64,000 nt of DNA from Escherichia coli. GTDB taxonomy: Bacteria > Pseudomonadota > Gammaproteobacteria > Enterobacterales > Enterobacteriaceae. The stretch lies in the NCBI RefSeq assembly GCF_013315695.1, contig NZ_CP054353.1; one strand, 5' to 3'. This document shows positions 15,797-56,338 of this stretch, one piece after another. Every line of letters starts with the position of its first letter. The stretch's first letter is position 1. The notes under the pieces were generated by a model. It was given only the letters and a program-made list of their open reading frames with translations. It did not search any database and was not told where the DNA came from. Made by a program: the position numbers and the translations under genes.

Positions 15797-15906
15797 GCGA
15801 GCAGCATTCCTGATTTTAAACGTGAACGTCGTTGGAAGAATTAACAGGTATAGAATGGCGTTGGGTGCTTGAGGCTGTCTGGCGTTAAGCATTCGCGAGG
15901 TTCCAG

Positions 15907-16008
15907 ATGGACAAAAGCCCCAGGCGATATTTCTATCAACCTGAGGCCAGCGTTCGAACCCAAACAATTCGAATGTTAGTCTCTTCTTTGCAGGGAGGCA
16001 AGACATGC
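15907..16008 (+). CDS. mok-like upstream reading frame, translationally coupled to hok
   Basis: 33-codon ORF ([15 protein letters not shown]...GGKTC) with a GAGG RBS; its TGA stop overlaps the hok ATG (ATGCTGA), the arrangement typical of hok/mok loci. Confidence 0.35.
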
Positions 16009-16157
16009 TGACAAAATATGCCCTTGTGGCAATCATAGTGCTGTGTTTTACAGTACTGGGATTCACGCTGATGGTAGGCGACTCGTTGTGTGAGTTGAGT
16101 ATCAGAGAACGTGGTATGGAGTTTAAGGCGGTTCTCGCTTACGAATCGAAGAAGTAG
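16005..16157 (+). CDS. hokX: Hok/Gef-family type I toxin (50 aa), apparently intact
   Basis: [50 protein letters not shown]: single TM helix followed by the conserved SLCE...AYES motif of Hok/Gef; GGAGG RBS; a GC hairpin (CGCGGGG-GTAAAA-CCCCGCG, 16164-16183) lies just downstream. Symbol by position between cysH and cas3. Confidence 0.7.
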
Positions 16158-46085: not shown

Positions 46086-48647
46086 TTACACCAGACTCTT
46101 CAAGCGATAAATCCACTCCAGCGCCTGACGCGGAGTCAGTGAATCCGGGTCGAGGTTTTCCAGTGCCTCGACCGCAGGCGAAGTTTCTTCTGGTACGGAC
46201 AGCAAAGACATCTGCGTGCCATCCACTTGCGTAGCGGCGGCGTTCGGCGAAATGCTTTCCAGCTCACGCAGTTTTTGCCGTGCGCGCTTAATCACCTCTT
46301 TTGGCACGCCCGCCAGAGCAGCAACCGCCAGGCCGTAGCTTTTGCTCGCCGCGCCGTCCTGTACGCTGTGCATAAAGGCGATGGTGTCGCCGTGCTCCAG
46401 CGCATCGAGGTGCACGTTAGCCACGCCTTCCATTTTCTCCGGCAGTTGAGTCAGCTCGAAGTAATGGGTGGCAAACAACGTCAATGCCTTAATCTTATTC
46501 GCCAGATTTTCAGCGCACGCCCACGCCAGCGACAGACCATCGTAAGTGGACGTTCCACGCCCAATCTCATCCATCAACACCAGGCTGTACTCCGTGGCGT
46601 TATGCAGAATATTGGCGGTTTCGGTCATCTCCACCATAAAGGTTGAACGCCCGGATGCCAGATCGTCAGCCGCGCCCACACGGGTAAAGATACGGTCAAT
46701 CGGGCCAATCTCGACTTTTTGCGCCGGTACGTAGCTGCCGATATAGGCCATCAGCGCAATCAGTGCGGTCTGGCGCATATAGGTACTTTTACCGCCCATG
46801 TTCGGACCGGTGATGATCAACATGCGACGCTGCGGCGACAGGTTCAGCGGGTTAGCGATAAACGGCTCATTCAGTACCTGTTCAACTACCGGATGGCGAC
46901 CTTCGGTAATGCGAATACCCGGTTTATCAATGAAGGTCGGGCAGGTGTAGTTCAGGGTATAGGCCCGTTCCGCCAGGTTCACCAGTACGTCGAGTTCTGC
47001 CAGTGCGCTCGCGCTCTGTTGCAACGTTTCCAGATGCGGCAACAGCAGGTCGAACAACTCTTCATAAAGCTGTTTTTCCAGTGCCAGTGCTTTACCTTTC
47101 GAGGTGAGTACTTTGTCTTCATACTCTTTTAGCTCTGGAATAATGTAGCGTTCGGCGTTTTTCAGCGTCTGGCGACGCATATAGTTGATGGGTGCCAGAT
47201 GGCTTTGTCCACGGCTGATCTGAATGTAATAACCATGAACCGCGTTAAAGCCGACTTTCAGCGTGTCCAGGCCAGTACGTTCACGCTCGCGGACTTCCAG
47301 ACGCTCCAGATAATCGGTCGCGCCGTCAGCCAGCGCGCGCCACTCATCCAGCTCTTCGTTATAGCCCGGTGCGATAACACCACCGTCGCGTACCAGCACT
47401 GGCGGTGTGTCGATGATTGCTCGCTCCAGCAGATCGCGCAGCTCGGCAAACTCGCCCATTTTTTCACGCAGCGCCTGTACCGGAGCGCTATCGACATTTT
47501 CTAATAGTGCACGCAGCTCCGGCAGTTGCTGGAAAGCGTGACGCATACGGGCCAGATCGCGTGGGCGAGCAGTTCGTAAAGCCAGACGCGCCAGAATACG
47601 TTCCAGGTCGCCGACCTGACGCAGTACCGGCTGCAGCTCGGCGGTGAAATCCTGCAATGCGCCAATAGTTTGCTGGCGCTCAAGCAACACGCGGGTATCG
47701 CGCACTGGCATATGCAGCCAGCGTTTCAGCATACGGCTGCCCATCGGCGTGACGGTGCAGTCGAGCACAGAAGCCAGCGTATTTTCCGCACCACCCGCCA
47801 GATTCTGGGTGATTTCCAGGTTACGACGCGTCGCGGCATCCATAATGATGCTGTCCTGCTCACGTTCCATAGTGATAGAACGAATATGCGGCAGGGTCGT
47901 GCGTTGGGTATCTTTCGCATATTGCAACAGACAACCGGCGGCACAAAGTCCGCGCGGTGCGTTCTCGACGCCAAAACTGACCAGATCGCGAGTGCCAAAT
48001 TGCAGGTTTAACTGCTGGCGCGCGGTGTCGATTTCAAACTCCCACAGCGGGCGACGACGCAGGCCGCGGCGACCTTCAATCAGCGACATCTCGGCGAAAT
48101 CTTCCGCATACAGTAATTCCGCTGGATTCGTACGTTGCAGTTCTGCCGCCATCGTTTCGCGGTCCGCCGGTTCGCTCAGGCGAAAACGACCGGAACTGAT
48201 ATCCAGCGTTGCGTAGCCGAAACCTTTACTGTCCTGCCAGATAGCCGCCAGCAGGTTGTCCTGACGTTCCTGCAACAGTGCTTCATCGCTGATGGTGCCC
48301 GGCGTAACGATACGGACAACTTTGCGCTCGACCGGCCCTTTGCTGGTCGCTGGATCGCCAATTTGTTCGCAGATGGCAACGGACTCGCCCTGGTTCACCA
48401 GTTTGGCGAGGTAGTTTTCCACCGCATGGTAGGGAATCCCCGCCATCGGGATTGGCTCTCCCGCTGAAGCACCGCGTTTGGTCAGTGAAATATCCAGCAG
48501 TTGCGACGCCCGTTTTGCGTCGTCATAAAACAGTTCATAAAAGTCGCCCATCCGGTAAAACAGCAGGATCTCGGGATGCTGGGCTTTCAGCTTGAGATAT
48601 TGCTGCATCATGGGCGTATGGGCATCGAAATTTTCTATTGCACTCAT
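46086..48647 (-). CDS. mutS: DNA mismatch repair protein MutS
   Basis: 853-aa ORF with Walker [10 protein letters not shown] and the MutS domain series. Confidence 0.95.
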
Positions 48648-48893
48648 GGGGTTATGTCCGGTTCCCTGATATTAAATGGGGTGTGATGGTTTTTATTTTC
48701 GTTGTTATCACATAAGGCGCACATGATACCGGAGTTAATCATTTCAGGGGAAGAAGCGAACGGCGAGTTCTTGATGGTGATTCCGGGAAAGATGCTGTTT
48801 TGCAGCTTTTGCGTGATGCTTATGAAGCAAGTACGCAAAATTGCGTCGGTTGAATAAACCTCCTCCTTCAGAGCCATAGTCCCCTTTCAAATT

Positions 48894-48916
48894 AAGTTGT
48901 AATATAAATACACCTT
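48894..48916. promoter_or_regulatory. NsrR-like inverted repeat upstream of ygbA
   Basis: AAGTTGTAATATAAATACACCTT resembles the 11-1-11 NsrR box (AAGATGCATTT-N-AAATGCATCTT) and sits 18 bp upstream of the ygbA start; ygbA as an NsrR regulon member is established knowledge. Confidence 0.35.
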
Positions 48917-48933
48917 AAGAGTATGGAGGCAGC

Positions 48934-49278
48934 ATGTCCGGCAAGCGTATCTCTCGTGAAAAACTGACGATTAAAAAAATGATCGATCTTTATCAAGCGA
49001 AATGCCCGCAGGCGTCAGCAGAGCCGGAGCATTACGAGGCGTTGTTTGCTTACGCGCAAAAGCGGCTGGATAAATGTGTGTTCGGCGAAGAGAAACCAGC
49101 CTGTAAGCAGTGTCCGGTGCACTGTTACCAGCCAGCAAAGCGTGAAGAGATGAAACAGATTATGCGTTGGGCCGGGCCGCGAATGCTGTGGCGTCATCCG
49201 ATCTTAACCGTGCGTCATCTCATCGATGACAAGCGTCCGGTGCCGGAGTTGCCAGAAAAATATCGTCCAAAGAAATAA
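48934..49278 (+). CDS. ygbA: Nitrous oxide-stimulated promoter family protein (YgbA-like, Cys-rich)
   Basis: 114-aa ORF with GGAGG RBS and CxxC motifs (CKQCPVHCY). Confidence 0.8.
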   Translation: MSGKRISREKLTIKKMIDLYQAKCPQASAEPEHYEALFAYAQKRLDKCVFGEEKPACKQCPVHCYQPAKREEMKQIMRWAGPRMLWRHPILTVRHLIDDKRPVPELPEKYRPKK

Positions 49279-49282
49279 ATCT

Positions 49283-49305
49283 GCCGGAGAGCCATACTCT
49301 CCGGC
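49283..49305 (-). terminator. Terminator hairpin downstream of the molbindin gene (minus strand)
   Basis: GCCGGAGAG-CCATA-CTCTCCGGC; on the minus strand it is followed by a U-rich tract (AGAUUUAUUUCUUU). Confidence 0.45.
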
Positions 49306-49316
49306 AAATAAGGCGT

Positions 49317-49745
49317 TTACGCTTTGGTGGCAATCAGGATGGCTGATGCTTTGATCAATGCAATAACGCGCGAGCCAGTGGTGAGTTTCATTTCATCCTG
49401 ACTTTCATTTGTTACCACTGCCACAATTTCAAAACCCGCATCCGTTTTGATATGGACAGTGGCGTTCACTGCGCCTTCGGTGATTGTCGACACGCTGCCA
49501 GCAAACTGGTTGCGAGCAGAGAATTTCAGTCCACAGTCTTCCGTTGCCAGTGTTACCCACGGGGCTTTAATCAGGGCAATCGCTTCTTTCCCTTTTGCCA
49601 GACCAAGAGCCTGCTGGCTGCTGTGTGTAACAATTGCCACCAGCTTTGCACCACCTGCCAGCGTCAGTTCTACTTCATCATTCACAGCGCCCATTGCTAC
49701 TGCGCTAACTGTTCCGGTTAATTGATTTCTTGCTGAAACTGCCAT
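49317..49745 (-). CDS. Tandem TOBE-domain molybdate/tungstate-binding protein (molbindin, Mop-like), 142 aa
   Basis: Two TOBE repeats each starting with the SARNQ signature (MAVSARNQLTGTVSAV... and KFSARNQFAGSVSTI...); start placed at the ATG 7 nt after AAAGGAGG (the track ORF from 49784 is over-extended); 44 bp downstream of fhlA on the same strand with no intervening terminator. Confidence 0.8.
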   Translation of the reverse strand: MAVSARNQLTGTVSAVAMGAVNDEVELTLAGGAKLVAIVTHSSQQALGLAKGKEAIALIKAPWVTLATEDCGLKFSARNQFAGSVSTITEGAVNATVHIKTDAGFEIVAVVTNESQDEMKLTTGSRVIALIKASAILIATKA

Positions 49746-49789
49746 ACTGCCTCCTTTCATTGAATGTTGATCGAGTATAACCACATCTG

Positions 49790-56281: not shown

Positions 56282-56338
56282 GTGTCGATGAGTGTCGAAA
56301 ATGACATTTCATCGGCATGTTTTCGTCAAAAATGACAA
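56282..56338. promoter_or_regulatory. Second FhlA-UAS-like motif between hycA and hycB
   Basis: TGTCGATGAGTGTCGAAAATGACA... repeats the 55631-55665 motif almost exactly. Confidence 0.4.

Follow-up and report, generated by a model that had tools for sequence, protein, structure and literature searches.

The 23-bp inverted repeat that precedes ygbA at positions 48894–48916 of the window (the whole stretch of 64,000 nt of Escherichia coli DNA analysed here) is the already published NsrR operator of that gene, and its identification is correct but ordinary. In the reading adopted here, held at a probability of about 0.9, the box is the operator for an NsrR dimer at the ygbA promoter and probably covers the −10 element together with the predicted start of transcription. 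Membership of ygbA in the NsrR regulon has long been recognised, and the box matters little beyond correct annotation. The modest additions made below are not discoveries. They concern the apparent second role of the left half-site as a −10 hexamer, for which a weak −35 candidate lies 17 bp upstream, and a count of three operator alleles common in E. coli.

Read directly, the box is AAGTTGTAATATAAATACACCTT, i.e. two inverted arms of 11 nt around a 1-nt centre (AAGTTGTAATA-T-AAATACACCTT, with no strand assigned to the operator as a whole), mirrored at 8 of 11 positions. The two half-sites are of unequal quality. The left, promoter-proximal one (AAGTTGTAATA, 48894–48904, + strand) matches the NsrR half-site matrix weakly, at 6.7 bits, and 135 positions of the window score at least as high. 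The right one (AAGGTGTATTT, 48906–48916, − strand), which carries an A/G polymorphism at 48910, is a strong match of 13.1 bits, a level reached by only two half-site positions of the whole window. The ATG of ygbA lies at 48934 and thus begins 18 nt past the end of the box, with 17 nt in between, among them the Shine–Dalgarno sequence GGAGG (48925–48929, + strand), which corresponds to a purine-rich block at the same offset in the orthologs. A repeat finder run over the region did not report the inverted repeat and returned only the palindrome CTTAAG (48914–48919), because the repeat is imperfect and contains no exact 6-nt seed; a weight matrix was used for the box in its place. One further half-site candidate upstream (AAGATGCTGTT at 48789, 8.6 bits) is judged a chance match, with 45 window positions scoring equally.

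The weight matrix is symmetric and was built from 25 published 11-1-11 NsrR sites (Table 4 of PMC5320621), with the ygbA site left out. Under this matrix the box scores 21.1 bits and ranks first among the 63,978 positions of the window; under a uniform background it scores 20.0 bits. The score falls in the middle of the range covered by the training sites, which are ChIP-confirmed (12.5–32 bits). According to the exact score distribution, its probability is 4.5e-8 per position, corresponding to ∼0.003 expected occurrences per 64-kb window. None of 200 windows simulated with a first-order Markov model reaches it, the top simulated score being 18.3 bits. The box is therefore far beyond chance.

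The second-best matrix match in the window, at 56299–56321 between hycA and hycB, is not independent evidence because it belonged to the training set. Its sequence (AAATGACATTTCATCGGCATGTT) is identical to the hycB NsrR site listed in Table 4 of PMC5320621. In the ChIP-seq data for strain CFT073 this site underlies one of the two top peaks, with the highest −log10 P (523.77) and a 16-fold enrichment, second to grxD, and hycB expression is down 100-fold with nitrate (PMC5320621). Since the hycB site is present in the window and is published as bound in CFT073, the window contains a second NsrR site, 7.4 kb from ygbA.

Published data on ygbA itself point in the same direction. The NsrR site given for CFT073 ygbA by Mehta et al. 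(2015; Table 4, PMC5320621) is AAGGTGCATTTATATTACAACTT; reverse-complemented, it agrees with the window box at all but one base (G in CFT073, A in the window at 48910). The CFT073 site passes the PatSer filter, with a ln(P) of −16.65 against a threshold of −14.28 (PMC5320621). The ygbA sites of CFT073 and K-12 occupy the same locus, in the same 23-bp register and at the same distance from ygbA as the box of the window. Regulation of E. coli ygbA by NsrR is attributed to Bodenmiller and Spiro (2006), as cited in PMC5320621, and the same paper states that NsrR binding at ygbA was positive by ChIP-chip in K-12. In addition, ygbA is among the genes most strongly induced by NO derived from nitrate (PMC5320621), and its mRNA rises 31.8-fold in a Salmonella nsrR mutant (PMC2884951). 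No peak was detected at ygbA in the CFT073 ChIP-seq experiment, a result that its authors treat as a probable false negative (PMC5320621). The regulator gene, nsrR, lies outside the 64-kb window; of 5426 complete E. coli genomes, 5425 carry it, with at least 99% identity in 5297 records.

The original prediction had described a sequence resembling the 11-1-11 NsrR operator, placed 18 bp upstream of the ygbA ATG and consistent with nitrosative-stress control of the gene, and had proposed a position-weight-matrix scan with known NsrR sites as a check. The resemblance is borne out by the mirrored arms, by the first rank of the box in that scan and by its near-identity to the published site, and the distance is as given. 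Control of ygbA by nitrosative stress finds support in the published operator, in the derepression seen in the Salmonella nsrR mutant and in the K-12 ChIP-chip result.

Conservation was followed in one genome per species; a scan of these genomes yielded 464 stretches encoding YgbA relatives, of which the best 80 were kept. These come mostly from Enterobacteriaceae (e.g. Escherichia, Citrobacter, Salmonella, Enterobacter, Klebsiella, Raoultella, Kluyvera and Leclercia), with the addition of Hafnia and Rahnella. Within the 300 nt upstream of the gene, the best matrix match is situated 12–25 nt before the start codon in 79 of these 80 loci (best 80 of 464); in the Hafnia locus the distance is 41 nt. 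The consensus of the ortholog boxes is AAggtGTAttAT.aATgCA.cTT. When the upstream 100 nt are aligned with MAFFT, the box is the sole long conserved block, and its flanks are unalignable between genera. Conservation in the ortholog sites is in part symmetric, affecting A1A2 and T22T23, G6 and C18, and A8 and T16, as would be expected of a site that accommodates a dimer. A comparison with K-12 gives the same picture on a shorter scale, with 13 differences in the 54 nt before the box and five in the 17 nt after it, versus two in the 23 nt of the box. On a larger scale, ∼20 differences from K-12 are found in the 90 bp next to ygbA (48844–48933) and four in the 200 bp on the mutS side (48640–48843), while YgbA is 99% identical; this seemingly abrupt local shift in divergence perhaps marks a recombination boundary in the mutS region.

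The architecture of the box is that of the operators of E. coli ytfE, hcp and hmp, namely two 11-bp half-sites around one base with a consensus close to AAGATGCATTT-A-AAATGCATCTT. The ytfE site matches the window box at 16 of 23 positions. Departure from the ytfE/hcp/hmp consensus in the left arm of the window box occurs at positions 7, 9 and 11, which read T, A and A in place of C, T and T. Two of these departures, at positions 7 and 11, are shared by virtually all ygbA orthologs: among 67 distinct orthologous sites, T7 and A8 are found in all 67, A11 in 66 and T12 again in 67. The NsrR matrix, on the other hand, prefers C at position 7 (0.61) and T at position 11 (0.80) and has no preference at position 12, and the ortholog sites vary much more at the mirror positions 13 and 17 than at positions 7 and 11. 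The constraint is thus one-sided. Box positions 7–12, inside the left half-site, read TAATAT (48900–48905, + strand), a putative −10 hexamer that agrees with TATAAT at four of six positions, including the key T, A and final T; a strict σ70 scan reports no promoter.

Upstream of the box, an ungapped box-anchored profile retains as its only conserved columns a Y-T-G triad at −17 to −15 from the box, with G in 76 of 82 sequences. This triad corresponds to the first three bases of a hexamer separated from the putative −10 by a 17-bp spacer. In the window that hexamer is TAGTCC (48877–48882, + strand), a weak −35 candidate that agrees with TTGACA at three of six positions. The strict σ70 consensus scan, which covered 48600–49400, found no promoter, and was replaced by a permissive promoter scan combined with the ortholog profile. 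Together, the one-sided constraint on T7, A11 and T12 and the Y-T-G triad point to a weak σ70 promoter, the −10 and start of which would be inside the operator. The comparative data, namely the T-A-n-n-A-T invariance and the triad, support an overlap of the box with the −10 region, and we infer a double role of the left half-site as operator arm and −10 hexamer. The left half-site would then be a poor NsrR match because it also has the shape of a −10 (T7-A8-n-n-A11-T12), and an embedded −10 would account for the one-sided deviation of the ygbA operator from the consensus. A full-text literature search for the ygbA transcription start found none, the Kim 2012 supplements listing ygbA (b2732) in an orthologue table only, nor did a search of the literature turn up a paper that places NsrR sites with respect to the −10 element. 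A scan against Rfam gave no match in or around the box, so that a reading of the box as an RNA element was dropped.

The invariance of T7, A8, A11 and T12 suits a −10 hexamer so well that the whole conserved block might be regarded as the core promoter of ygbA, i.e. a −10 with AT-rich surroundings, its likeness to an NsrR site being coincidental. Such an explanation is extremely improbable, as it leaves unexplained both the invariant right arm (T16, C18, A19, T22 and T23), situated 10–17 bp downstream, and the mirror symmetry of this arm with A1, A2, G6 and A8. Moreover, the high score of the right arm alone is one that only a pair of half-site positions in the window attain, and genetics and ChIP-chip, as reported in PMC5320621 and PMC2884951, link ygbA to NsrR.

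Taken as an operator with an embedded promoter, the box suggests a mode of action. NsrR, an iron–sulfur NO sensor of the Rrf2 family, would bind 48894–48916 at the ygbA promoter as a dimer. Because the operator probably spans both the −10 and the predicted transcription start, near 48912, bound NsrR would exclude RNA polymerase and keep ygbA off. Damage to the iron–sulfur cluster by NO would cause NsrR to leave the DNA, and ygbA would then be transcribed into an mRNA with a short leader of ∼22 nt carrying the GGAGG ribosome-binding site. The −10, the −35 and the start point are predictions from sequence comparison, and the preference for occlusion of the promoter over a roadblock is an assignment of the same kind.

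In the roadblock version, the NsrR box would lie downstream of the true promoter and the bound protein would block elongation or promoter escape. A candidate for such a promoter is provided by the permissive scan, which pairs TTGAAT (48850) with CATAGT (48875), each matching at four of six positions, and places the start near 48887. Its spacer of 19 bp, however, is outside the usual range, and its hexamers are not conserved beyond Escherichia, Citrobacter and Salmonella. What is conserved instead across 82 sequences is the T-A-n-n-A-T of the box and the Y-T-G triad at the 17-bp spacer, and the ‘ATAGT’ of the candidate is better read as part of the −35 position at that spacer. A roadblock is accordingly considered unlikely, and occlusion of the promoter by operator-bound NsrR is retained as the probable mode of repression.

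Structural data available for another NsrR are compatible with a −10 embedded in the operator. In the crystal structure of Streptomyces coelicolor NsrR with the hmpA1 operator, an Rrf2 dimer sits on 23 bp of DNA and its wings contact the outer bases; the central 7 bp of the operator can be changed without measurable effect on binding (PMC9338935). By analogy, a tolerant operator centre fits a ygbA box in which the centre would be free to act as a −10. The analogy is between proteins of different specificity, since S. coelicolor NsrR does not bind E. coli NsrR sites with significant affinity (PMC9338935). A literature search for a structure of E. coli NsrR on DNA found none.

Rrf2 proteins have a common fold, and a different regulator might be thought to act on ygbA instead of or besides NsrR, be it the Rrf2 paralogue IscR or a regulator responding to nitrate/nitrite or oxygen. 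IscR operators are longer than the NsrR-type box and have a different sequence. Other NO-responsive promoters, that of hmp for one, are subject to more than one regulator (PMC2884951). The box nevertheless matches a matrix built solely from NsrR ChIP-seq sites, and the upstream region contains no further conserved block able to hold a second operator. The chance that another regulator accounts for the box is judged minimal, and NsrR is kept as its ligand.

Within E. coli the operator exists in several forms. The box of the window shares 22 of 23 bases with the CFT073 site, the difference being A versus G at box position 17 (ATACA versus ATGCA), and 21 of 23 with the K-12 site, where T4 and C20 of the window (48897 and 48913) are replaced by A4 and T20. 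At the position corresponding to 48910, K-12 has A. The variant positions 4, 17 and 20 also vary among published NsrR sites, and the matrix scores of the three alleles are within 1.5 bits of each other. Counted by three exact 40-mers centred on the box in 5426 complete E. coli genomes, the K-12-type allele (AAGATGTAATATAAATACATCTT) occurs in 2134, the window-type allele in 1336 and the CFT073-type allele, with G at position 17, in 1090; the remaining genomes have other variants of the 40-mer. Across genera, most sequences have G at position 17 (69 of 82). One may speculate, with considerable doubt, that evolution has locked the ygbA operator in a compromise, the left half being fixed as a −10 and the right half carrying the affinity, and that the alleles at positions 4, 17 and 20 might set lineage-specific levels of NsrR occupancy and hence NO thresholds for the induction of ygbA.

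The open reading frame downstream of the box, at 48934–49278 (+ strand; 114 aa plus stop), encodes a protein that matches Pfam family PF11756 (YgbA_NO, E = 4e-41) and shares 113 of its 114 residues with K-12 YgbA; RefSeq genomes annotate it as ygbA. The region is found in 5,419 of 5,426 complete E. coli genomes and is 100% identical over 681 nt to that of E. coli MS 21-1, where the annotation comprises mutS, a small hypothetical protein, ygbA and a TOBE-domain protein. The small protein (48723–48857, + strand), in the mutS–ygbA spacer, is the 44-aa hypothetical protein WP_000611937.1 of the RefSeq annotation of MS 21-1; it has no Pfam match, and its DNA is nearly invariant between the window and K-12.

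Directly after the ygbA stop codon, between the convergent ygbA (+ strand) and TOBE-domain (− strand) genes, a terminator scan reports a G+C-rich hairpin with a stem of 14 pairs (49279–49309, no strand assigned) followed by a T-run on the − strand only. The hairpin probably terminates transcription of the TOBE-domain gene, and possibly that of ygbA as well. The TOBE-domain gene itself (49317–49784, − strand), situated between ygbA and fhlA, encodes a product of 155 aa that contains two TOBE domains (Pfam PF03459, E = 1e-34). The gene occurs in 1892 of 5426 E. coli genomes and is absent from K-12, where the ygbA–fhlA gap measures 36 nt, and is therefore an accessory gene. Elsewhere in the window, and unrelated to the ygbA box, a match to the Rfam sok antitoxin RNA (RF01794, 111 bits) at 15863–16020 (+ strand) indicates a chromosomal toxin–antitoxin locus of the hok/sok type.
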